From NCBI GenBank assembly GCA_963666055.2, contig CAXWPH010000002.1, positions 96,001 to 160,000 on the forward strand: a stretch of DNA of 64,000 nucleotides, given 5' to 3'. Each line of letters begins with the position of its first letter. The stretch's first letter is position 1. This DNA is from Acidobacteriota bacterium (GTDB lineage: Bacteria > Acidobacteriota > UBA890 > WLXD01). The notes beneath the pieces are model-generated. The model had not been told where the DNA came from. It did not search any database and saw only the letters and a program-made list of their open reading frames with translations. This document shows, piece after piece, positions 52,235 to 64,000 of the stretch. The position numbers and the translations under genes are program-made.

Positions 52235-53011
52235 GTGGGCCCGTCGCCGACCGGGACGCTGCTGGTGGCGTTGTGCTGCAGCGCCAGCGCCACACAGGCG
52301 ACGCTGTCCATCGAGTACATCGCTCACGCCAGCTTCTTGATCGAGTCGCCGGGTGGCGCCCGCATCCTGGTGGATCCGTTCGCCAGCCGTGTGTGGATCG
52401 GCTACGACTTTCCCGAGGGCCTGCATCCCGACGCGGTCGTGATCACCCATCCGCACTATGATCACGATGCCGGGCGGTTCCGTGGCTCGCCGTTCCCGTG
52501 GCCTGAGGCGCGCATCTTCGACGCCCCCGGCGAGTTCATGGTCGACGACGTTCGCGTGATCGGGCTGCGCGGAAAGCACGCCGATCCGTACGGCGAGGAG
52601 TTCGGCCAGCGCAACACGATCTGGGTGATCGAGACGGCCGGTCTCCGAATCGCACACATCGGCGACAACGGCCCGCTGACACGCGACAACGTTCGCGATC
52701 TCGGCACCATCGACATTCTCATGTTGCCGATCGATGCCCAGTACCACATCCTGGCGCGCGAGGAGGCCGCCGCGCTCGTTACGGCGGTGCAACCACGGCA
52801 CCTGGTACCGATGCACTATCGGCTGCCGGAGCTGGAGCCGGACCCCGACTCGCCCGCTGACCTCGGCACCATCGACCCCTGGCTGCAGGGCCGCGCCGGA
52901 GTTGTGCGGCTCGGTTCCCACCGGTGGCAGGTGGGGCTCGACACGCTGCTCCCGGCCGGCAGCACGGTCGTCTTCGAGCCTTCGCCGCGGGTGGCGCGGC
53001 CAGCGCGCTAG
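52235..53011 (+). CDS. MBL-fold metallo-hydrolase, secreted
   Basis: AHASFLI, ILVDPF, ITHPHYDH, AHIGD, VPMHY. Confidence 0.88.
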   Translation: MGPSPTGTLLVALCCSASATQATLSIEYIAHASFLIESPGGARILVDPFASRVWIGYDFPEGLHPDAVVITHPHYDHDAGRFRGSPFPWPEARIFDAPGEFMVDDVRVIGLRGKHADPYGEEFGQRNTIWVIETAGLRIAHIGDNGPLTRDNVRDLGTIDILMLPIDAQYHILAREEAAALVTAVQPRHLVPMHYRLPELEPDPDSPADLGTIDPWLQGRAGVVRLGSHRWQVGLDTLLPAGSTVVFEPSPRVARPAR

Positions 53012-53094
53012 GGCATCGCCAGCGTCAGGCCGCCTTGCATCTAACCCCAGCTCGCCGAAACCAGGCCCGTCACACTTCCGCCACGGCCTGCTAG
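53008..53094. repeat. 87-bp CTAG-to-CTAG sub-module of MITE family A
   Basis: Its reverse complement aligns along the full length with 49990-50076, which ends at an internal CTAG. Confidence 0.8.
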
Positions 53095-53822
53095 GGGTCG
53101 GAGTCGAACGGTGCTCCCAGTGCTGCCGCGAACGCGCGGATGCGGGCCGCGTTCGCTCCCAGATCACTGCGGCCGACGCGCGACGTCGAGCGTACGTCAA
53201 CTACCGACCCCGACGAGACCGGGCGGACGCGCACGACGAAATCCTCTACGAAGGCAAAAACACTCGATACCGCATAGGCCTCGATGTGGCCGTCGGCACG
53301 GTTACTGAAGGCAATGGTAAGGCCGATCTCCTCCGCTGCCCGAATGGCGGCCGCGTGAGCCGCGCCGGGGTCGAGGTCGAGCTCGATGGGTCGCAAGTCG
53401 GGATAAGCGCGTCGTTGCTCGACGATGACCTCGGCGCCGCCCTGCGGATAGGTCAAGTCGCGGCTCGCGTTATCGTCGTGGTCGAGGGCGACACGGTATG
53501 CGGGCGCATCGTCGGGTGACGTGGTGATGTCGTGAATCGGCGGCGCGTTCATCTGCAGGCGGGCGGCCACCAGCGCAATGATCAGCACTGTGCCGCCGAA
53601 GAGTCCGCGTCGGCCTGCCGCCGGCGACCGCGAATCCTTTCGTGCCCGGCGCCACGCCAGCAGGCCGAGGGCGATGCTGAGCAGGCCCCCCAGGGCCCAA
53701 GTCAGCACGAAGACTCCGAACCCGCTTAGCGGCCTGGCGGCGCCGACATGGATTGCTGCTACTGCGCCCCCCATGATGCCGACGGTAACGATGGGGGAGT
53801 ATGCTGCACTCCGCATCAACAT
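53091..53822 (-). CDS. DUF1499 domain membrane protein
   Basis: PPIHDITT, QRRAYPDLRP, GHIEA, FVEDFVVRV, VDVRSTSRVGRSDLGANAARI. Confidence 0.88.
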   Translation of the reverse strand: MLMRSAAYSPIVTVGIMGGAVAAIHVGAARPLSGFGVFVLTWALGGLLSIALGLLAWRRARKDSRSPAAGRRGLFGGTVLIIALVAARLQMNAPPIHDITTSPDDAPAYRVALDHDDNASRDLTYPQGGAEVIVEQRRAYPDLRPIELDLDPGAAHAAAIRAAEEIGLTIAFSNRADGHIEAYAVSSVFAFVEDFVVRVRPVSSGSVVDVRSTSRVGRSDLGANAARIRAFAAALGAPFDSDP

Positions 53823-54030
53823 TCCTTGCTCCCGAAGTGCCGGCAGGTGCGCCGTAGATGAGTCCCAGAGACCTCATCGGCCTGCTCTCGAGCTCCTCTG
53901 AATCCGACTTCGACGAGACGGTCCGCCGGTACTGCCAGCCGGCTGTTGGGGTAGGCATCGTACAAGACCCTGTACCGGCGCAGGATGCGCACGTCCCTAC
54001 TAGGCTACTCGACTCAGGTAGACTCTCGTG

Positions 54031-54954
54031 ATGGCCGAAGATCGCAAGGAGCTCGTGGCGATCGTCGCGGCGAGGGAGGATGAGCTCGCGCCGCTGCGCG
54101 AGCGTGTGCTCGTTTCCGAGAAGATCAAAGATGGGCCCCGCTACTACCTACGGGGCACGCTGCGCGGAGTGCAGGTCGTGCTCGCGGTTACCGGCGACGG
54201 CAAGCGCAACGCCGATCTCGGAATCCGACGGTTGATCCAGATGTGCGCGCCGACGCGCGTCCTGGCTGTCGGGTTGGGAGGCGCGCTCTCGACAGACCTT
54301 GCGGTTGGCGACCTGGTGGTCTCCAGCGAAGTGATGGAGGGAGAACACACACTCGCCTGTCCGGATCTGCAGTGGCTGGAGGAAGCGTCGATTCATCTGG
54401 ATTATGACCTCGGGCGGCTGGTTACCGTCGACGAGATCTTGGCGACACCATCGAGCAAGTCGGAGTGGTACGGGCGGACATGGCGCGACCAGCCCGCTGC
54501 TGCCGACATGGAGTCCGCCTGCTTCGCCAGAGTGGCCGTAGCCTACAACCTGCCATACCTGATCGCGCGGGCTATCAGCGACGCTGCCGACGAGGTGCTA
54601 CCAGAGTTCCTCGAGGACTGCCGCGCGCAGGACGGCAGCATCGACAAGCGTCAGGTGTTTTGGAAGACGCTCTGGCGACCACGCTCGTGGGGCAACATCG
54701 TACGCTTGCGCTCGCGCATGCGGCGGTGCGCTAGCACGCTGGCCGATTTCGCCGAAGGGATTGGTTGCTGCGTTAGCCTAGCTGCGTTCCCCTCACTGGG
54801 CGCGTTGCCAGCGTCCGCCATTGACATGCCCCGAGGTGTCAAGGACACTCGGAACCCTATGCCCTCAGTGCGGTGCGCTGGTCTTGAACGCGGCGCGCCT
54901 GCCTCTTGTGCGTCGCCGTTGCCGGCGCCGATGCCGCGTTGCGAGTACGCATGA
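54031..54954 (+). CDS. Nucleoside phosphorylase (PNP/MTA-SAH nucleosidase fold), HpnG-like; C-terminus probably frameshift-extended (likely native stop 54779-54781)
   Basis: VTGDGKRNA, VGLGGAL..DLAVGDLV, ADMESA, RAISD; C-terminal helix similar to hopanoid-associated phosphorylases; adjacent to the isoprenoid operon. Confidence 0.75.
   Translation: MAEDRKELVAIVAAREDELAPLRERVLVSEKIKDGPRYYLRGTLRGVQVVLAVTGDGKRNADLGIRRLIQMCAPTRVLAVGLGGALSTDLAVGDLVVSSEVMEGEHTLACPDLQWLEEASIHLDYDLGRLVTVDEILATPSSKSEWYGRTWRDQPAAADMESACFARVAVAYNLPYLIARAISDAADEVLPEFLEDCRAQDGSIDKRQVFWKTLWRPRSWGNIVRLRSRMRRCASTLADFAEGIGCCVSLAAFPSLGALPASAIDMPRGVKDTRNPMPSVRCAGLERGAPASCASPLPAPMPRCEYA
54821..54849 (+). promoter_or_regulatory. 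Candidate promoter/operator of the mevalonate operon
   Basis: TTGACA-N10-TGTCAA inverted repeat (54821-54842); TTGACA is followed 17 nt later by GACACT. Confidence 0.5.
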
Positions 54955-55997
54955 GCAGTACCGACTCACCGGCCGCCAAGCCACCGGCCGAGCGCGACCG
55001 CAAAGCCGAGCACATCCAGCTGGCGCTCGAAGAGCGTATGCAGCACGGCAGTCGCGGCTTCGACGCTTGGCGGCTCGAGCATTGCGCCCTTCCCGAGCTC
55101 GACCTGGCCGAGGTCGACCTCAGCACCGAATTCCTCGGCAAGCAGCTGGCGGCGCCGCTCCTTATCTCCTGCATGACCGGTGGCACCGCTGACGCGGCCC
55201 GAATCAACCGCAACTTGGCCATCGGCGCCGAGCGGGCCGGTGTTGCGGTTGGCGTGGGGTCGCAGCGCAAGGCGCTGGAGGATCCTACGCTCCAAGCCAC
55301 CTTCCAGGTTCGTGAGTACGCTCCCACGGTCCCCCTGCTGGCCAATCTAGGGGCGGTGCAATTGAACTGCGGGTACGGCGTCGCCGAGTGCCGGGCGGCC
55401 GTTCATATGATCGATGCCGACGCTCTCGTGTTGCACCTGAACCCTCTGCAGGAGGCGATTCAGCCCGAGGGCGATGTCAACTTCGCCAACCTGTTGCCGA
55501 AGATCGGCGCGATTGTTGGTCAACTCGAGGTACCGGTCATCGTCAAGGAGATCGGCATGGGCATATCGCTGTCGGTGGCCGAGCGCCTCGCTGAAGCCGG
55601 CGTCCGTATCATCGACACTGCGGGGCATGGGGGCACCAACTGGGCGCGCATCGAAGCGCAGCGTGCCGACGACCTCGAGCTCGGTGCGACGTTCGCCGAG
55701 TGGGGAATTCCAACGCCCGACAGCATCCGCGCCGTCGCCAGCGTGCCGGGAGTCACCGTCATTGGCAGCGGCGGGGTCCGTACTGGAATCGACGTGGCCA
55801 AGGCGGTAGCGCTCGGCGCTGACATGGTCGGCCTGGCGTATCCGTTCCTCAAAGCGGCGCTGGAGTCAGCCGCTGCCGTCGTGGCGCGGATCGACCGTAC
55901 CTTGACGGAGCTCAGGGTGTCGATGTTCTGCGCCGGCATCCGTACAGTGGCCGATCTGCGTGCCGCAAGTCTGATCGAGCGAGCGACTCGGCGATGA
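54951..55997 (+). CDS. fni: Type 2 isopentenyl-diphosphate delta-isomerase (FMN-dependent)
   Basis: RKAEHI, ISCMTGG, VGSQR, ANLGAVQL, HLNPLQEAIQPEGD, VKEIG, GGTNW, SGGVRTG. Confidence 0.96.
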   Translation: MSSTDSPAAKPPAERDRKAEHIQLALEERMQHGSRGFDAWRLEHCALPELDLAEVDLSTEFLGKQLAAPLLISCMTGGTADAARINRNLAIGAERAGVAVGVGSQRKALEDPTLQATFQVREYAPTVPLLANLGAVQLNCGYGVAECRAAVHMIDADALVLHLNPLQEAIQPEGDVNFANLLPKIGAIVGQLEVPVIVKEIGMGISLSVAERLAEAGVRIIDTAGHGGTNWARIEAQRADDLELGATFAEWGIPTPDSIRAVASVPGVTVIGSGGVRTGIDVAKAVALGADMVGLAYPFLKAALESAAAVVARIDRTLTELRVSMFCAGIRTVADLRAASLIERATRR

Positions 55998-57247
55998 CTG
56001 ACGCTGCCGAGCCGGTCGACCAGGGCACCCTCGTAGACGAGATCGTAGCCGGCACCCGGCGCTTCCATCACCTGCCGTCCGAGCTCGGCGCCGCTGAGGC
56101 TGCGGCCATTCGACGACAGGCGCTCGAGCGCCTGGCCGGAGTAAATCTGACACATACCGGCAAGTACTCATTCGACGCCGCGCGCGCCGCCGACAGCCAT
56201 TGCGAGAATCTGATCGGTGTGACGCAGGTGCCGGTCGGTGTAGCAGGGCCACTACTCGTGCGGGGTGATTATATCGACGGTGAGGTCTACGTCCCTCTGG
56301 CTACGACGGAGGGAGCGCTCGTCGCCAGCATTAACCGGGGCTGTGCGGCCATCCGCGCGGCCGGCGGGGCCGCCGTGTACGTGGAGGACGTCGGCATGAC
56401 CCGGGCGCCGGTGTTTCGCTCCAGCGGGCTGGCGCAGACACGTGAGTTCCTCCGCTGGGTTACCGACAACGAGGATGAGATCCGCTCCGTGGCAGAGGGC
56501 ACGAGCCGCTTCCTGCAGCTGGTGGATATCCGCCCCTATGCTTTCGGTACCACGATCTTCCTGCGCTTCAGGTTTCGCTCGGGCGATGCCATGGGAATGA
56601 ACATGGCAACCATCGCCTGCGATCAGCTAGTGCGCGAGTTGATCGAGCCGGCGACCGGGGTACCCTGCGTTGCTCTTTCCGGAAACTACTGTACCGACAA
56701 GAAACCCGCGGCGATCAACTTCCAGGAAGGCCGCGGCAAGCGCATACACGCGCAGGTCAGACTCGACGCCGATGTGCTGGCGCGCCTGAAGACGAGCGCG
56801 GCCGAGCTGCTCGAGGTGCAGTATCGCAAGAACCTGCTGGGCTCGATTGCTGCCGGTTCGATAGGTTTCAATGCCCACGTCGCCAACGTTCTCGCGGCGG
56901 TGTTTCTCGCTACTGGACAGGATCCGGCGCATGTAGTGGAAGGGTCGATGGGAATCACCTCTATCGAGCCTGGCGACGAGGGTGGCGTGGTGGCATCGAT
57001 GTACCTGCCTGCTGTTCCGCTGGCGGCGATCGGCGGTGGTACTGCGCTCGACACACAACGCGAGGCGCTTGCTGTGCTCGGCGTTGCTGCAGAGCCGGAC
57101 CGGCCTGGTGTCGCGGTGCTGCGATTAGCCGAGATCCTCGGCGCCGCCGTCCTCGCAGGCGAGCTGTCGTTGCTGGCCGCTCTTACCTCTCAGGACCTCG
57201 CCGGCGCCCACAAGCGGCTGGGGCGGCGCGCCCGGCCCGGCAGCTAG
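55994..57247 (+). CDS. hmgA: Class I (NADPH) HMG-CoA reductase
   Basis: CENLIG, PLATTEGALVASINRG, GMTRAP, GDAMGMNM, SGNYCTDKKPAAIN, GQDPAH, LAGELSL. Confidence 0.96.
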   Translation: MTDAAEPVDQGTLVDEIVAGTRRFHHLPSELGAAEAAAIRRQALERLAGVNLTHTGKYSFDAARAADSHCENLIGVTQVPVGVAGPLLVRGDYIDGEVYVPLATTEGALVASINRGCAAIRAAGGAAVYVEDVGMTRAPVFRSSGLAQTREFLRWVTDNEDEIRSVAEGTSRFLQLVDIRPYAFGTTIFLRFRFRSGDAMGMNMATIACDQLVRELIEPATGVPCVALSGNYCTDKKPAAINFQEGRGKRIHAQVRLDADVLARLKTSAAELLEVQYRKNLLGSIAAGSIGFNAHVANVLAAVFLATGQDPAHVVEGSMGITSIEPGDEGGVVASMYLPAVPLAAIGGGTALDTQREALAVLGVAAEPDRPGVAVLRLAEILGAAVLAGELSLLAALTSQDLAGAHKRLGRRARPGS

Positions 57248-57258
57248 ACGGTCGCCTG

Positions 57259-58377
57259 ATGGAAGCGGCGCGGTTGCCCGAAGGGCGCTTGCTGACGCGC
57301 GTCTCGACGCCTGGAAAGCTCATCCTCATGGGCGAACATGCGGTCGTCTACGGTCGGCCGGCGCTGGTGGCGGCCACTAGCCTGCGCCTACGGGTCTACC
57401 TATACCGCGCACAGCGGGCCGGCGTGGAAGTGGAGTTGCCGGAGCTCCAGTTCCAAAACCACGTTTCTTGGCAAGAGATCTGGCGCTATGCGAGCCGAAT
57501 GCGGCAGCGGTGGGACCGCTACGACACGAGCCTGACGCCGGAGGTGTTCGCTCGCCTTCAGGACGACCGCCCCGACCGGTTGGTGCTGCTGGCACTGGGC
57601 GAGGCAATCACGGCGCTCGGTGAGGATCCCGGCGCGAAGGACCATCCGCTGAGCGCGCTGCGGCTTCGGGTGGACTCGGCGGTCCCAATGGAGGTCGGCT
57701 TTGGGAGCTCCGCCGCCACCGCCGTGGCAGTGGTAACAGCGGTTTGTGCGCTCTCTGGTAAGGCGGAGAGGTGGTCACTGATTGGGCCGATCGTGGGCGA
57801 GGTGGAGCGCCGGCAGCATGGCGCGCCGTCTGGGGTGGATGTCGCGGCCGTGTTTCACGGCGGTGTGTTGCGCGCTCGCCGCGGCGGCGAAGAGCTATTG
57901 ATCGAGCCGCTGGCGGCGCGCCCTGACACCCTGCAGCGGCTGCGGGTGTTCGACACGGGTCGCTCGGCCGAGCCGACCGGCGCGGTGGTCGCGGCAGTAC
58001 GGGCGCAACACGACCGCCACCCAGCCAGCTTCGAGGCGTCGCTGGACGCTGCCGAATCCGCAACCCGGGCCTTCCAGGACGCGGTTACCGCATCAGCTGA
58101 CCAGATCGACCTGGTGCCACCGATCCGCGATGCTCAGCGCTACCTGGAGTCTCTCGGTGTGGTGCCCGAGCCAGTATGCGACGCCGTCCGCGCTGTCGAA
58201 GCTCTGGGCGGCGCCGCCAAGATCTCCGGTTCGGGTTCGCTCGCGGGGCCAGGGGCCGGCTCTTTGTTGGTATTGTTGCCTGCTGGGATCGAGAATCTCC
58301 CAGAGCCGCTGGCGAGGCTTCCGGAGCACGAAGTGTCGCTGGGCGCGGAGGGTGTGCGCGTAGAGGTGGCGTCATGA
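57259..58377 (+). CDS. mvk: Mevalonate kinase (GHMP family)
   Basis: PGKLILMGEHAVVYG, P.EVGFGSSAA, HGAPSGVD, AKISGSG. Confidence 0.88.
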   Translation: MEAARLPEGRLLTRVSTPGKLILMGEHAVVYGRPALVAATSLRLRVYLYRAQRAGVEVELPELQFQNHVSWQEIWRYASRMRQRWDRYDTSLTPEVFARLQDDRPDRLVLLALGEAITALGEDPGAKDHPLSALRLRVDSAVPMEVGFGSSAATAVAVVTAVCALSGKAERWSLIGPIVGEVERRQHGAPSGVDVAAVFHGGVLRARRGGEELLIEPLAARPDTLQRLRVFDTGRSAEPTGAVVAAVRAQHDRHPASFEASLDAAESATRAFQDAVTASADQIDLVPPIRDAQRYLESLGVVPEPVCDAVRAVEALGGAAKISGSGSLAGPGAGSLLVLLPAGIENLPEPLARLPEHEVSLGAEGVRVEVAS

Positions 58378-59399
58378 GCCGCAGCGCCACCGTCGAAGCA
58401 CCCTCCAATATCGCGTTTGTGAAGTACTGGGGTGCCGCTGACCTGGAGAAGGCCATCCCGCTCAACGCTTCGATCTCGATGTCGTTGCGGGCGTGCGTCA
58501 CACGGACGAGCGTCGAGACGCTCGCGGCCGGCGCCGACGACCAGATCTGGATGCGCGTCGACGGCCAATGGCGTCGCGCCGAAGGAGCGTTCCGGCATCG
58601 CGCAGCGGCACATCTGGAAGGTCTGCGGCGTTGGGCCAAAGTCGACGTGGGCTTTCGGGTCGCTACCGAGAACAGCTTTCCTGCCGCCGCCGGTATCGCC
58701 TCGTCGGCTTCCGGCTTCGCCGCCCTCACCCTGGCGGTGCTGGCGGCGCTCGAGCGGGAGCCGGCAGGTGATGAGCTATCGAATTTGGCGCGGTTGTCTG
58801 GCTCAGGCTCCGCGTCGCGGTCGGTTTTCGGCGGCTACGTGCAGTGGCCGCACGGCGACGAGGCAGACCCGTGGCGCGCCGCACCGCTGGCGACGGCCTC
58901 GCATTGGGACCTGCGCGACGTAATCGCGATTGTGCAAACCGGTCCCAAGGCGGTGTCGTCTCTCGAGGGGCACGCCCGGGCCCCCACCAGCCCCCATTTC
59001 GCACGCCGGCAGGAGCTCATCCCGTCGCGTCTTCAACGGGTGCGCGACGCCATCGAGGCGCGCGACCTGGACCAACTCGGTCCGGTCGTCGAGGAAGACG
59101 CGATTGAGCTCCACCTGGTAGCGATGTCCTCGCAGCCTCCGATCTTCTACTGGCAGCCGGCGACGCTTCGCGTGCTGCACCACGTTCGCACCCTGCGGAG
59201 CGGTGGAACGTCGGCGTGGGCAACAATGGACGCCGGAGCTAACGTGCATGTGATTTGCTCCGCCGACGACGAGGCAGACGTCGCCGCCGGGTTGGAAGCG
59301 CTCGATGGTGTCCAGAGTGTGATCCGCGACGGCGTGGGCTCGGGACCACGGACCCTGCCGGTATCGCTGCTCGATGCTCTGGATCGAGCGCAGCCATGA
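58374..59399 (+). CDS. mvaD: MvaD-family decarboxylase, probably mevalonate-5-phosphate decarboxylase
   Basis: NIAFVKYWG, NASIS, NSFPAAAGIASSASGFAAL, GSGSASRS, SSLEGH, TMDAGANVH; followed by ipk. Confidence 0.9.
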   Translation: MSRSATVEAPSNIAFVKYWGAADLEKAIPLNASISMSLRACVTRTSVETLAAGADDQIWMRVDGQWRRAEGAFRHRAAAHLEGLRRWAKVDVGFRVATENSFPAAAGIASSASGFAALTLAVLAALEREPAGDELSNLARLSGSGSASRSVFGGYVQWPHGDEADPWRAAPLATASHWDLRDVIAIVQTGPKAVSSLEGHARAPTSPHFARRQELIPSRLQRVRDAIEARDLDQLGPVVEEDAIELHLVAMSSQPPIFYWQPATLRVLHHVRTLRSGGTSAWATMDAGANVHVICSADDEADVAAGLEALDGVQSVIRDGVGSGPRTLPVSLLDALDRAQP

Positions 59400-60196
59400 A
59401 CGACCTGGTGGTAGTCAAGCTCGGTGGCAGCTTGATCACGAACAAGCGCCGCCATCGAACGGTGAGGCGGGCTGAGCTTTCGCGACTCGCCGGCGAGATC
59501 GCGGCGCTCACCCGCCGCTTTGGATTCCCGATGCTGTTAGGGCACGGTAGTGGGTCCTTTGGGCACGTGGCGGCAGCGGAGTCAGGCGTTCACGACGGGA
59601 TGGCCGGGCGTCGTGCGCGGGTCGGTGTGTCGCAGACGCAGGCTGCAGCTGCAGAGCTGCACGCGATCGTGATGAGCGCTCTGCGCGATGCCGGTGTGGC
59701 TGCCTACTCGGTGGCGCCGTCGAGCGCTATTGTCGCCAGAGGCCCCGGTCTTCGGCCGAGCGTGCACCTGGAGCCGGTGCTCCGAGCGCTCGACAGTGGG
59801 CTGCTACCCGTTACGTATGGCGACATCGTCATGGACCGGCAACGTGGCTGCTCGATTTGCTCGACCGAAATGGCGCTGCTGGCGTTCGTTCGCTCGCTAC
59901 GCTCGTCAAATCGGCGTGTCTCCGACGCCATCTGGCTCGGAGACACCGACGGCATTCTGGATGCGGCTGGGGTGAGCGTTACTCGCGTCCGCTTGCGAGA
60001 CGCCAGGCGCGTCCGCCGCCTGGTGAGTGGCGCGGCCGCGACCGACGTGACCGGCGGCATGCGCCATCGGTTCGAGGCGGCGTTGGCGCTGGCCCGCATT
60101 GGCGTACGGTCCTATCTGCTCGATGGCCGTCGACCGGGCATCCTGCGACGTGCGCTGCGGGGCACCGCGGTGCCGGGGACAATCGTCGAGCGTTGA
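59396..60196 (+). CDS. ipk: Isopentenyl phosphate kinase (amino acid kinase family)
   Basis: VVKLGGSLITNK, GHGSGSFGH, PVTYGD, ICSTE, DVTGGM, typical of IPK. Confidence 0.9.
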   Translation: MNDLVVVKLGGSLITNKRRHRTVRRAELSRLAGEIAALTRRFGFPMLLGHGSGSFGHVAAAESGVHDGMAGRRARVGVSQTQAAAAELHAIVMSALRDAGVAAYSVAPSSAIVARGPGLRPSVHLEPVLRALDSGLLPVTYGDIVMDRQRGCSICSTEMALLAFVRSLRSSNRRVSDAIWLGDTDGILDAAGVSVTRVRLRDARRVRRLVSGAAATDVTGGMRHRFEAALALARIGVRSYLLDGRRPGILRRALRGTAVPGTIVER

Positions 60197-60276
60197 CCGG
60201 CGGCGGCTTCGTTGCCTGGGCCGCGCCCCCGCCAGGGTGGATAATGGACCTCGGCCAGCCAAAGCCAGGCGCACGC

Positions 60277-61197
60277 ATGGACCGCATCGAAGACCTTCTC
60301 GAGAAGACCAGCCGCACGTTCGCGCTATCGATCCCGTTGCTGCCGGAGCCGACCCGCCGCGAGCTTGGCATCGCCTACCTGCTGTTCCGCATTGCGGACA
60401 CCTTCGAGGACGCGTCGCAATGGGACCGACAGCAGCGCATCGATGCCCTCGAAGAGTTCATGAGCCTGGTTCGAGATCCGGACGAGCAGCGCGCCGCCGA
60501 GCTGGGACGTAGGTGGGCCGCCTCCGTACCGATTGACCATCCCGGCTATCTCGAGCTACTCGGCGAATCCGCAACCGTGATCCGGGAATACCAGCGTCTG
60601 CGACCTGACGCACGGGAGATCATCCGTGAGCACACGTTGCGGACCGTTGCTGGCATGTCCGGATTCGTCAAGCGCTCTGTCGATGGCGTGCTCAAGCTCG
60701 AGTCTCTCGCTGACTTGCGCGAGTACTGTTACGTGGTTGCCGGTATCGTCGGTGAGCTCAGCACTGATCTGTTCCTCCTCGAGCGCCCCCAGCTGGCGTC
60801 GTCGATCGAGTTCTTGCGACAGCGCGCTGCGCGGTTTGGCGAGGCGCTGCAACTGGTCAACATCCTCAAGGATGCCGCCACCGACCGGCGTGAGGGTCGG
60901 CGTTACCTGCCTGCAGCGTTGAAGCGCAAGGAGATCTTCCGGTTGGCCCGCGAAGACCTCCGAGTAGCAGCCCATTACACCAACGCACTGCAGGCGGCGG
61001 GTGCGCCGCGCGGCATCGTCGCGTTCTGCGCGCTACCTACACGGCTGGCCGTCGTCGCCCTCGACATCGTCGAGCGGTGCGGGCCCGGCGCGAAGATCTC
61101 ACGCCAAGACGTTGCCGACATCGTCGAGGCCCTGAACCTAGATCTCGACGTCGGTGCTCCCGCGGTGGCGATTCCAGCAACCGCGAAACCGACGTGA
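60277..61197 (+). CDS. Squalene/phytoene synthase family, single-subunit squalene synthase-like (alternative ATG 60244)
   Basis: KTSRTFAL, YLLFRIADTFED, YCYVVAGIVGE, LQLVNILKD, EGRRYLP. Confidence 0.88.
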   Translation: MDRIEDLLEKTSRTFALSIPLLPEPTRRELGIAYLLFRIADTFEDASQWDRQQRIDALEEFMSLVRDPDEQRAAELGRRWAASVPIDHPGYLELLGESATVIREYQRLRPDAREIIREHTLRTVAGMSGFVKRSVDGVLKLESLADLREYCYVVAGIVGELSTDLFLLERPQLASSIEFLRQRAARFGEALQLVNILKDAATDRREGRRYLPAALKRKEIFRLAREDLRVAAHYTNALQAAGAPRGIVAFCALPTRLAVVALDIVERCGPGAKISRQDVADIVEALNLDLDVGAPAVAIPATAKPT

Positions 61198-61226
61198 CCA
61201 AGCCGGTGTCCGGCGCTGCTCCGAGA

Positions 61227-62048
61227 TCACTTTTCGGCACCTTCGGGGTTAGCTCTCTTGGCGCGGTCGATCCAGGCGTCGGCGTCCGGATGGCCCCGTT
61301 GCTGCCATTCCCGGGCTCGATCCATAGTCCGCCGATAGGCGTCGCGGCTTGCCGCGGCGTCGTCGACTTCGGCGTAGGCCTCGGCTAGCGCGAGGAGGTT
61401 GGGGGGGTACTCGGGGTAGAGCTCGACTGCGCGTCGCGCCTGCTCCAGGCCCTCGTCCGCGTCTCCGGGACCGGTGGGCCAGCCGGGCGCTTGCACCAGC
61501 ATTTGCGACAACACGCGCCGAGGTCCCGCGTAGTCGAGACGTTCGTGCCCGGCGATGGCAGCACGGAGCTCGCGTTCCATCGTGCGTAGCCCGTCCGAAG
61601 CCGTGGCGCGACGCTGGTTGGCTTGTACGCCGACGGCGATCGCCAGCCAGTAGTGGCAGTCCGGGTTCGTTGGCTCGCGCCTTCGGCACCACTGGGCCGT
61701 TTGCACTGCCTCGGTGGCCTTGTCCTTACGAGCCTGCGGATCGTCCAAATGCTCCCCGAGCCAGGTCTGTGCCCTCACGGCACCGATGATTGCCAGTGCG
61801 CTCGACGGACGGGCGATGGCGGATCGGATCCAGAGGGCCTCGGCCTGACGCACCGCGTCGACCTTGGGGCGTAGCCCGAACGCTTCCTCGGCGGCGGTAG
61901 CCAGACGGGCAGCCTCCTCCTCGTCGATGCGTTCCGGATCGACGCGGCCGAGCGCCGAGCTCGTGTCGAGCGGCTGGAGCGCAGCGACACACGCGGACGA
62001 AGCGAGAGCTGCGGCTGCCAGTAAGGCGGCGGATCGACGAAGGCTCAT
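61227..62048 (-). CDS. TPR lipoprotein, TatT/BstC-like
   Basis: SSAC lipobox; CHYWLAIAVG, DYAGPRRVL...QAPGWPTGPGD, P.YPPN..ALAEA. Confidence 0.75.
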   Translation of the reverse strand: MSLRRSAALLAAAALASSACVAALQPLDTSSALGRVDPERIDEEEAARLATAAEEAFGLRPKVDAVRQAEALWIRSAIARPSSALAIIGAVRAQTWLGEHLDDPQARKDKATEAVQTAQWCRRREPTNPDCHYWLAIAVGVQANQRRATASDGLRTMERELRAAIAGHERLDYAGPRRVLSQMLVQAPGWPTGPGDADEGLEQARRAVELYPEYPPNLLALAEAYAEVDDAAASRDAYRRTMDRAREWQQRGHPDADAWIDRAKRANPEGAEK

Positions 62049-62938
62049 CGAGCCGCCGAGTACGCCGCCCGGGCAAGGTCCAGCGCCTCGGCGTCCAGGG
62101 CTTCGAAGCGCTCTAGTCGCATGGTTTCGAGCACGTCAGCGAAGCTCGCCGACTGGTGGATGCCGAGCAGCCCGTGGACTAACTGCCGACGCACCGGCTC
62201 GTCGACGCGGTCGCCCACGACGACGACGAGCCAGGCCAAGAGAGGCGGTGACGTCGCCACCACCTCGAGCGACTCCGCGCCCGGAAACGAAGCCAACGCG
62301 GCAGTCTGGTTGCCATCGAGAAGTACGGCAACTTCCTCGCCGGCGGCCACACGCCGTATGCCGGCAAGGACCCGCCGTGTGAACTTGACGGAAAGCGAAT
62401 CCGGCAGCTCCCCCCAATGCGCCAGTGCCGGCCCGCGTACGAAACCGGGTGCGTATGCCGGAATGCCTAGTAGCTCCCAGCCGGAGAGCGAGGCGGGCCC
62501 GGTGACCGCTCCGGCGAAAGCCACCAGGCTCCAGCGCTCGGTGGCGCTCCCGGACGCCTGTACCGCCTGCACCACCGCCGTGAGCACCAGCTCCTGCTCG
62601 TACTTCAGATATAGCGGTAGTGGCACCAACGCCAGCGACGTGGCGTGGTCGCGTAGACGGCCTACCCCGGCTTCCTCGCTCGGATGGTATTCGGCCGTCA
62701 AGGTCCCGGTCGGCCACCCTGAGGCGTCCGAGACCATCGCTGCGAAGTCGTTCATCGTCGGCTGCGCCTGCTCGGTGTTGCTCGGATACCCTGGCGCGCA
62801 GGCCACCAGCCGCAGAGTCTCCAGGTCGGCGGATACGCCAGCCTGACTCCCACCGCCTGCCGTCGTCGCAGCTGCCGTCGTCGCACAAAGCGCCACCGCG
62901 AAGAGAAGCTTGTTCATCGTCGGCGCAGAATCGTTCAT
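62045..62938 (-). CDS. Periplasmic substrate-binding protein, PhnD/BstB-like
   Basis: Signal peptide; ACAPGYPSNTEQAQPTMNDF, GWP.G.L.AEY, VAVLLD..Q, SPPL; 4-nt overlap with the downstream lipoprotein gene. Confidence 0.7.
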   Translation of the reverse strand: MNDSAPTMNKLLFAVALCATTAAATTAGGGSQAGVSADLETLRLVACAPGYPSNTEQAQPTMNDFAAMVSDASGWPTGTLTAEYHPSEEAGVGRLRDHATSLALVPLPLYLKYEQELVLTAVVQAVQASGSATERWSLVAFAGAVTGPASLSGWELLGIPAYAPGFVRGPALAHWGELPDSLSVKFTRRVLAGIRRVAAGEEVAVLLDGNQTAALASFPGAESLEVVATSPPLLAWLVVVVGDRVDEPVRRQLVHGLLGIHQSASFADVLETMRLERFEALDAEALDLARAAYSAAR

Positions 62939-62984
62939 CGTGGGGAGGGTTGTCAGTATTCTTCGAAAGAATACCTGCCACCTG

Positions 62985-64000
62985 TCAACGGCGCGCGATC
63001 CCGCTCACGATCAACAGGTTCGGCAGCACGATCAAGGCGGCGACAGTGCAAGCGCCCACCCCTAGCAGCAGTACGACCCCAAGGCTCGCCATGCCGCGGT
63101 GTGTAGCAAACACGAGGCTTCCGAATCCCACCATGGTCGTAAGCGAAGCGATGAGGATCGCCCGCCCGGTATGCGAAACGACCGTCATGATGCCGGCGCC
63201 GCCCTCTAGTCGCAGTCGGTGGACGATGTGTACTCCGGCATCGATGCCGACTCCCAGGACGATCGGCACCGCCACCAGGTTGGCGAAATTAAACGACAGA
63301 CCGAGCGCCCACATGAGTCCGAGCATCCATACCGTCCCGAAGAAAACCGGGACGAGGGCGAGAGCCGTGTGCCGCGCGTTGCGCAGATCCAGCAGCAGCA
63401 CCAGGAACACGACCAACGCGGCGCTCGCGAATGCTAGCCCGAACCCCGAGGTGATCAAGGCAGAGTGGGTTTCGAAGAGCACCGGAAAGCCGATGGCGTC
63501 GTTGGCGACGCGGCGCGACGCGAAGTTGAACTGTCGCAGGAAGCGGGTGTCATAAATATCGCCTGCCGGGAACAGATAGCCAACGTATCGGTCGTCCTCG
63601 GTGATGAATCGATCGACGATGTCTGAAGGCAAGGATGCTCGGGTCGGGAGCGGCACGCCGGCGGCGTCGCGCAGCTGCTGTAGGACGCTGAACGCCTCGA
63701 GGCGCAGGGCCTCCTGTGCCTCGGCCCACTCGGCGATCCGCTCGCGGCTCGCCGCGATCGTTAGCTCGATGGCTCTTGCGGTCACCTGACGGGCCTCTTC
63801 CAAGGCTCCGGACACCCCTCCCAGCCCGGCAACGAAAGCGTCGTCGGCGGCGATGGCCAAGGCAGACTCTAGTCGCGACAGCGAGTCACTCAGGCGGCGG
63901 CCGTCGAACGCCGCCTCGCCCACCTCGATGACTTCCAGAGTCCGGCGGAGGCGCGCCGCGGCGGCCTCCGACGCCAACGGTTGATCGGGCAGGAATGCGA
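62985..64000 (-). CDS. RND/MMPL family lipid transporter (HpnN/BstA-like), 5' end beyond window
   Basis: C-terminal TM repeat: LALVPV, NFANLVAVPIVLGVGIDAGVHIVHR, TGRAILIASLTTMVGFGSL, GMASLG; the frame is open to the window edge. Confidence 0.9.
   Translation of the reverse strand, partial: AFLPDQPLASEAAAARLRRTLEVIEVGEAAFDGRRLSDSLSRLESALAIAADDAFVAGLGGVSGALEEARQVTARAIELTIAASRERIAEWAEAQEALRLEAFSVLQQLRDAAGVPLPTRASLPSDIVDRFITEDDRYVGYLFPAGDIYDTRFLRQFNFASRRVANDAIGFPVLFETHSALITSGFGLAFASAALVVFLVLLLDLRNARHTALALVPVFFGTVWMLGLMWALGLSFNFANLVAVPIVLGVGIDAGVHIVHRLRLEGGAGIMTVVSHTGRAILIASLTTMVGFGSLVFATHRGMASLGVVLLLGVGACTVAALIVLPNLLIVSGIARR

Follow-up and report, generated by a model that had tools for sequence, protein, structure and literature searches.

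What cargo is left for a relative of the bacterial sterol transporter BstABC in a genome that appears to make squalene and in which we find no known enzyme to consume it? The question is raised by three genes at the end of the window analysed here, a stretch of 64,000 bp (G000:C2:96001-160000) from a 5.73-Mb Acidobacteriota genome, G000, which is assembled in 15 contigs and 95.7% complete. The genes, referred to below as the trio, lie co-oriented on the minus strand and encode, in this order, an RND pump, a periplasmic binding protein and a lipoprotein. Judged by their sequences they are distant relatives of BstABC, the only known bacterial sterol-transport system, and our sequence and model comparisons indicate a conserved module that is of BstABC type in its build without being its equivalog. 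We propose, with a probability of roughly 0.45, that the trio may move squalene or an uncyclised derivative outward, as an ancestral hopanoid relay that would now work with the linear precursor.

The bstA/hpnN-like gene for the RND pump, of the MMPL family, encodes 897 residues (G000:C2:158985-161678); only its last 337 codons fall within the window (62985..64000). It is followed by the bstB-like gene for the binding protein (297 aa, 62045..62938), which more probably starts at its second ATG (62917), and by the bstC-like gene for a TPR/TatT-fold lipoprotein (273 aa, 61227..62048), whose start overlaps the bstB-like stop by 4 bp. Pfam assigns MMPL to the first product, Phosphonate-bd to the second (E 5.6e-8) and, weakly, TPR_17 to the third, for which the TatT model gives no match. 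The binding protein contains CAPGYPSNTEQAQP; the lipoprotein contains QAPGWPTGPGD, and its Cys20 is nearly invariant among 36 aligned homologues. Neither ABC ATPases and permeases nor TRAP subunits (P, Q or M) are encoded next to the trio. A preliminary description of the window, made from its letters, had reported this gene order and the lack of adjoining ABC ATPase or TRAP membrane subunits, and our gene calls, Pfam assignments and flanking annotation agree with it on both counts.

Among solved structures, BstB (7t1m) is the sole sequence match of the binding protein at E<=1 (E 5.6e-10) and the top Foldseek hit of its model (predicted local distance difference test score, pLDDT, 91; E 4.6e-18), ahead of ArrX, PtxB and PhnD. 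Likewise, BstC (7t1s) is the best match of the lipoprotein by sequence (E 2.3e-16) and heads the Foldseek ranking of its model (pLDDT 94). The NCBIfam scores stay well short of the equivalog cut-offs, with 63 bits against 350 for BstB and 83 against 350 for BstC. The RND pump finds its best PDB match in HpnN (E 3.9e-41), and the two family models come out in a near tie, HpnN (TIGR03480) with 366 bits against a cut-off of 752 and BstA with 359 against 1400. A simple window analysis gives it 11 hydrophobic segments, and it carries two GxGxD motifs, GMGID at 357-361 (D361) and GVGID at 809-813 (D813); such paired transmembrane aspartate motifs of RND pumps serve in proton coupling. The homology to BstABC previously proposed is thereby upheld, with BstB and BstC as the closest solved structures in both sequence and fold and a pump that is HpnN/BstA-like.

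That the trio is no product of chance follows from its conservation and from contigs of public DNA runs. Nine of the ten other genomes of the same family contain a BstC match (E<=8e-60). Logan contigs from three of four DNA runs, belonging to two studies, reproduce 52500-56842 with 0-1 differences, and 56818-64000 forms a single contig in two of the four; the source sample itself may be among these runs, but the first stretch is present also in the run of the second study. In the GTDB collection, four related loci share 48-80% identity with the window lipoprotein, and all four stand in Acidobacteriota records, which supports the acidobacterial origin that had been presumed. Atlas look-alikes of the BstC homologue P0007, to be taken as a lead only, fall into Acidobacteriota, Myxococcota and Planctomycetota clusters. 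Between bstA and bstB lies a box, TATTCT or TATCCT in G000 and all five relatives shown, which in G000 (TATTCT, 62968..62973, minus strand) is by its conservation a candidate internal -10 element for bstBC. A scan for sigma-70 consensus promoters and terminators found no full promoter and gave no signal above chance.

Could the binding protein simply be a PhnD-type phosphonate or oxyanion receptor, and the three genes unrelated neighbours? Its Pfam Phosphonate-bd score is above cut-off, and its fold also matches ArrX, PtxB and PhnD. Receptors of the PhnD/PtxB type are marked by a Ser/Thr phosphate-binding loop, and no Ser/Thr-rich loop of this kind was found in the binding protein. BstB precedes these receptors by both sequence and fold, ABC genes are not adjoining, and bstB and bstC adjoin one another in 23 of the 24 loci inspected among the 33 BstB loci outside the family. 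BstB itself falls in the Phosphonate-bd family. On all these grounds we regard this explanation as scarcely credible.

We placed the pocket residues given in PMC10942540 by hand, via the sequence alignments with the PDB matches BstB and BstC. In the tail-lining pocket of BstB, in domain A, 12 of the 13 positions that could be mapped are non-polar and four are identical (six of the 19 published positions lie outside the alignment); Glu118 is kept, Tyr120 is replaced by Trp and Asn192 by Asp. In the cavity of BstC, five of 15 residues are identical and three have turned polar, and the lid loop is kept. Neither a polar phosphonate pocket nor a grouping with unrelated PhnD, TatT or MMPL clades, the signs that the preliminary description had named as speaking against a Bst-like system, was seen.

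The main clue to the cargo, which that description passed over, is the adjoining operon on the plus strand. It ends with a gene for a squalene synthase of the single-enzyme type (60244..61197), which converges on the trio tail to tail with bstC, at a gap of 29 bp. This is the only gene of the Pfam SQS_PSY family found in the genome, and its best NCBIfam model is squalene synthase, with a score below cut-off; its function is supported by orthologues, 50-54% identical, which close shc-hpnH operons in G109, G178, G223 and G276. Upstream of it follow genes for isopentenyl phosphate kinase (59396..60196; NF040647 above cut-off), mevalonate (di)phosphate decarboxylase (58374..59399; TIGR01240 above cut-off), mevalonate kinase (57259..58377; best match TIGR00549, with 136 bits against a cut-off of 163), 3-hydroxy-3-methylglutaryl coenzyme A (HMG-CoA) reductase of the NADPH type (55994..57247; TIGR00533 above cut-off) and type 2 isopentenyl-diphosphate isomerase (54951..55997; TIGR02151 above cut-off). 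The operon contains isopentenyl phosphate kinase and lacks phosphomevalonate kinase (57259-60196), a combination shared with the alternative, haloarchaea-type mevalonate route. With HMG-CoA synthase and two polyprenyl synthases encoded elsewhere in G000, the gene set for squalene is, as read from the sequence, complete.

As DXS gave only partial matches with 27-28% identity, the mevalonate genes are presumably needed for all isoprenoids of this organism, and the trio might thus export some other endogenous lipid, be it a polyprenol, a quinone, a prenyl alcohol or an acyl lipid. In other families the same bstBC pair is combined with a different MMPL subfamily of about 760 residues, so that the cargo range is evidently wide, and the low number of identical residues in the BstC cavity, together with the three polar ones, is compatible with such a cargo. 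However, the RND pump belongs with HpnN and BstA, the two members of its type that have been studied, and both of these handle triterpenoids; a gene for another lipid is not linked to the locus. Accordingly, we consider this improbable.

What could become of squalene in G000? A squalene-hopene or oxidosqualene cyclase was not found with two Pfam models and a cyclase of close kin as queries, nor was HpnH by tblastn, nor a squalene epoxidase; HpnI and HpnJ had no match near cut-off. CrtI/CrtN-family proteins are likewise absent above cut-off: the five best crtI-family matches score no higher than 132 bits (cut-off 238), and C30 carotenoids as an outlet for squalene were rejected as unlikely. A GcvT-like gene stands beside two of the three crtI-family loci. 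The osc, smo and sdmAB genes that accompany Bst genes in sterol producers were not encountered as neighbours, and without a cyclase or an epoxidase found in the genome a sterol cargo made in-house was rejected. By these cyclase, epoxidase and CrtI/CrtN searches, then, no known squalene consumer was found in G000, and the sterol or hopanoid cargo suggested in the preliminary description does not suit this genome.

Because G000 is incomplete, the absence of a cyclase cannot be proved from it alone, and a cyclase might have been missed by the assembly or be too divergent, in which case the trio would export hopanoids or sterols after all. Two short paralogous proteins (G000:C6:241883-243145 and C15:368153-368848), one with a signal-like N-terminus, do match the C-terminal cyclase model weakly, and the HpnG-like gene discussed below is the most conserved of the cluster. 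The short proteins (C15:368165, C6:242900) were rejected as triterpene cyclases, since their matches cover some 70 of the 319 positions of the model, and the model for the N-terminal domain gave no match. Moreover, eight of the ten BstC-bearing genomes of the family are without a cyclase match, two of them assembled in 2 contigs (G004 and G007), the site where a cyclase gene would be expected from synteny is contiguous and empty, and HpnH was not found either. A hidden cyclase is therefore very unlikely.

This site also bears on the history of the locus. In two genomes of the same family, G005 and G008, the facing operon is headed by shc-hpnH-hpnA, genes for which G000 offers 205 bp (53823..54027) in which the remnant search recognised nothing of them; the vacated site is bridged by one contig in three of the four DNA runs. 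In G008 the genes are divided between two contigs, the first with shc-hpnH-hpnA-hpnG-idi, the second with sqs, which faces bstC, and bstA beyond; in G005 a single contig carries the entire series together with bstABC, and shc lies about 13 kb from bstB. Both cyclases carry DCDD. The G005 copy is damaged (L042:1-3500, L041:19100-20000): a TAG interrupts shc, and hpnA contains a frameshift and an insertion-sequence-like stretch, while hpnH is intact, which could be a second, independent decay or the result of assembly errors. In a tree of concatenated BstA, BstB and BstC (14 rows, G002 and G010 omitted, five other families as outgroup, midpoint root), the seven cyclase-less rows of the family fall into a single clade (100/99) that is nested within G005 and G008, and an additional tree gave the same split. 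As judged from these trees, a single loss of shc-hpnH-hpnA is the simplest reading. A hopanoid cargo would be plausible for shc-keeping kin such as G008 and for the family ancestor.

The genes that stayed behind are not relics. In three full comparisons within the cyclase-less genus the ratio of non-synonymous to synonymous substitution rates (dN/dS) is 0.20-0.23 for BstA, 0.22-0.30 for BstB, 0.14-0.15 for BstC and 0.09-0.16 for squalene synthase, at dS of 0.56-1.09, indicating purifying selection on the trio and sqs alike (BstA values from L010 and L013 were dropped, as these gave a second internal-repeat alignment, and between-genus comparisons, with dS >1, were not relied on). The strongest constraint of the cluster, with a within-genus dN/dS of 0.05-0.06, is on the HpnG-like nucleosidase gene (54028..54954, plus strand), now the first of the operon, even though neither HpnH nor SHC was found. 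Its best model is HpnG, with a score below cut-off, and it is 66% identical to its orthologue in G008, the gene next after hpnA there; in G000 the frame exceeds that of kin by about 55 codons (308 aa, compared with ~250) and extends past the start of idi. A role as the sole nucleosidase was rejected, given four other PF01048 genes (PNP, MTAP and two MTAN-like). A TAGACT box precedes both this gene (54019-54024) and bstA (just upstream of 161678, G000:C2); both boxes end 6-7 nt before the ATG and are kept in kin. Genome-wide, TAnnnT peaks 6 nt before the start (36 of 1230 open reading frames), a spacing that suggests leaderless promoters in G000.

The scenario in which the trio handles squalene is proposed because it accounts for sqs and the trio having been kept together in a genome in which no squalene-consuming enzyme was found. 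In this scenario, the RND pump would lift squalene from the inner membrane at the expense of the proton gradient, by means of the two conserved aspartate motifs; BstB would shuttle it through the periplasm in its hydrophobic cleft; and BstC, anchored in the outer membrane, would receive it and deliver it there. The direction from the inner to the outer membrane would be that proposed for sterols in M. capsulatus. Presumably, hopanoids were its cargo in the family ancestor, and once shc-hpnH-hpnA had been lost the relay was retained to carry the linear precursor.

Several observations weigh against this scenario. Within the locus, the sqs operon and the trio run towards each other and do not share a transcript, and unrelated genes on the flanks are as syntenic in the family as the sqs-trio pair, so that this adjacency may be inherited instead of selected. 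(On its other flank the trio is followed by a divergent gene of the ornithine cyclodeaminase family and then by genes for a beta-lactamase-family protein, a DUF4097 protein and a hydrolase.) In a locus of the same genus, bstB is split by a frameshift, real or an assembly error (L005:9167-10000), and a tree of the mevalonate genes leaves the order of events open. In the proteins, the residues of the BstB pocket are near-identical across shc-bearing kin, shc-less kin and genomes that lack both pathways; the pocket therefore is no marker of a cargo switch. BstC moreover retains, as E99, the acid that binds the sterol hydroxyl (Glu86 in BstC, where it is needed for sterol binding; PMC10942540), a group absent from squalene. 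In kin, however, this position is variable (G007, G005 and G008 have R, N or H there); for this variability, E99 was rejected as a marker of cargo.

Further points against it come from a survey of 401 acidobacterial genomes at least 90% complete, which gave matches to BstB in 42, to a cyclase in 82 and to squalene synthase in 75; kin among them are not independent, and squalene synthesis of the HpnCDE type without a cyclase would escape these counts. (The unpublished genome G047 is part of the tallies, served as outgroup in the analysis of the mevalonate genes and was the source of the DXS query; the main conclusions would stand without it.) A cyclase match accompanies BstB in only eight of the 42 carriers and is absent in 34, a cyclase or squalene synthase match is present in 21, and neither in the other 21; among genomes with all three Bst parts, 6 of 22 have neither. 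A phylum-wide co-occurrence of Bst with triterpene synthesis, considered as an argument, was not found: outside the family, 12 of 33 BstB carriers have such a pathway, compared with 120 of 392 genomes overall. Of the 33 genomes outside the family that have a close squalene synthase, nine (G029, G076, G110, G161, G242, G260, G317, G333 and G348) gave no cyclase match, and squalene without a cyclase thus recurs in Acidobacteriota as far as genome content tells, yet in seven of nine genomes with this squalene synthase and no cyclase outside the family no BstB match was found. Finally, among metagenome loci (the best 80 of 244; 35 of the 80 are longer than 5 kb), only one, L116, contains shc, with bstBC facing sqs-shc-hpnA-hpnG-hpnH.

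These counts, and some of the neighbourhoods, fit with a broad-specificity lipid shuttle that has nothing to do with the neighbouring pathway and possibly works inward, on environmental sterols, hopanoids or fatty acids, the adjacency of sqs being inherited synteny. In 14 of the 24 inspected loci, bstBC is followed by genes for a secreted Fn3-domain protein of 680-780 aa and then a TonB-type receptor of about 1000 aa (e.g. L143:3498-8608, L148:11389-16669). In three others (L140:5674-13476, L054, L055), bstABC faces FadL, a 3-beta-hydroxysteroid dehydrogenase-like enzyme and a steroid 5-alpha-reductase, an arrangement present in all three genomes of family f8, none with a cyclase match, and by its gene content a candidate sterol uptake and modification cluster. 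In vitro, BstC binds cholesterol and lanosterol (PMC10942540), and TatT relatives bind fatty acids (PMC11713862). The retained E99 would suit such a shuttle, and the strong constraint on the HpnG-like gene without HpnH could be explained by uptake of adenosylhopane. On the other hand, G000 has no match to the Fn3 protein, FadL or the 5-alpha-reductase, and its TonB-type receptors lie elsewhere and are only 24-32% identical; HpnI and HpnJ, as mentioned, gave no match near cut-off; and the retention of sqs would be left unexplained. Bst genes, furthermore, stand beside shc in three separate lineages, namely this family, L116 and G027, in which RND, an oxidoreductase dependent on flavin adenine dinucleotide (FAD), bstB and shc follow in a row (1 of the 24 loci). 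Eight genomes of the survey combine BstB with a cyclase, and in two of these the genes lie within ~13 kb, where a rough chance expectation is 0.05 genomes, and fragmented assemblies may hide more. A general shuttle is thus a serious contender for this locus, if on the whole a doubtful one. For the module at large, half of the BstB carriers being without a detectable triterpene pathway, the neighbours being varied and shc linked in some, our genome comparisons indicate a lipid relay of several uses, which in some cases is connected with hopanoid genes.

Three observations made in passing concern the triterpene genes of the phylum. Oxidosqualene cyclases with DCTAE are encoded in two Acidobacteriota (L166:6049-9438 in G276 and L167:7446-10777 in G169). 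The G276 enzyme is fused behind an FAD-oxidoreductase-like part, probably a squalene monooxygenase, and the same genome also has an shc operon. In three further loci, a gene of ~200 codons is divergent from shc or near it (L168:10003, L172:12266, L173:10680); it resembles, we presume, a TetR regulator.

If the trio does carry squalene, what would follow? The Bst system would be a third, so far unrecognised route for hopanoids in the kin of G000 and a general relay for triterpenoids and other lipids, not a sterol speciality; for the passage of hopanoids through the periplasm, HpnN is known and its partners are only proposed, and BstABC has so far been described only alongside sterol genes. Whatever the cargo, Bst-like genes do not serve as a marker of sterol or hopanoid producers, as the 34 of 42 carriers without a cyclase match illustrate. 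The family offers a natural series, with shc intact in G008, broken in G005 and deleted in G000, in which the soluble proteins can be compared side by side. Two questions hang on it: can sterols, hopanoids and squalene all be carried by a single architecture, and do bacteria put free squalene into their outer membrane? More broadly, and only tentatively from such genomic evidence, a whole acidobacterial clade may have lost its cyclase once, kept squalene synthase and repurposed a Bst hopanoid relay as a dedicated squalene exporter, with uncyclised squalene conditioning the outer membrane. Free squalene can alter membranes in Halobacteria, fungi and mammals (PMC9907078); our literature search found no published evidence that it alters a bacterial outer membrane.

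Among known systems, the subdivision 22 Acidobacteria (main text of PMC5462960) likewise combine mevalonate genes instead of the methylerythritol phosphate pathway with a single-enzyme squalene synthase; unlike G000, their genome has shc and hpnH, and that text makes no mention of hpnN. The TatT/TPAT lipoproteins, lipid binders such as Tp0956 and Enhygromyxa TatT (8G52), share the all-helical fold of the G000 lipoprotein (Foldseek ranks 4 and 35), which is however closer to BstC and without their TRAP partner genes at its locus. HpnN (PDB 5KHN) is the best solved match of the pump and is connected to it by the hopanoid genes of its kin. Together with its proposed partners HpnM/HpnS or HpnT (main text of bioRxiv 10.1101/2025.07.29.667474), it follows the same logic of pump, shuttle and lipoprotein, but these partners have MlaC/MlaA or lipocalin folds, compared with the PhnD and TatT folds in G000; and shc, the criterion for an HpnN host, was not found in G000, is present in G008 and is broken in G005. 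The same main text does not mention Bst, TatT or PhnD, although its supplementary table of gene neighbourhoods may list these domains. For Bst itself, a search that left subscription journals largely uncovered found nothing on hopanoids or Acidobacteria beyond the papers of the Dassama group, of which PMC10942540 links Bst with sterol genes and mentions BstC homologues from deltaproteobacteria. Compared with BstABC of Methylococcus capsulatus (PMC10942540; PDB 7T1M, 7T1S), for which selective binding of 4-methylsterols is a criterion, the trio shows only 21-27% structural identity, scores far below the equivalog cut-offs and differs in 10 of the 15 BstC cavity residues, and its neighbours are not osc, smo and sdmAB but a truncated hopanoid operon. 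Yet it comprises the same three families in the same order, and it has kept the hydrophobic cleft of BstB with Glu118 and, in BstC, the lid loop and, at a position that varies in kin, the equivalent of Glu86.

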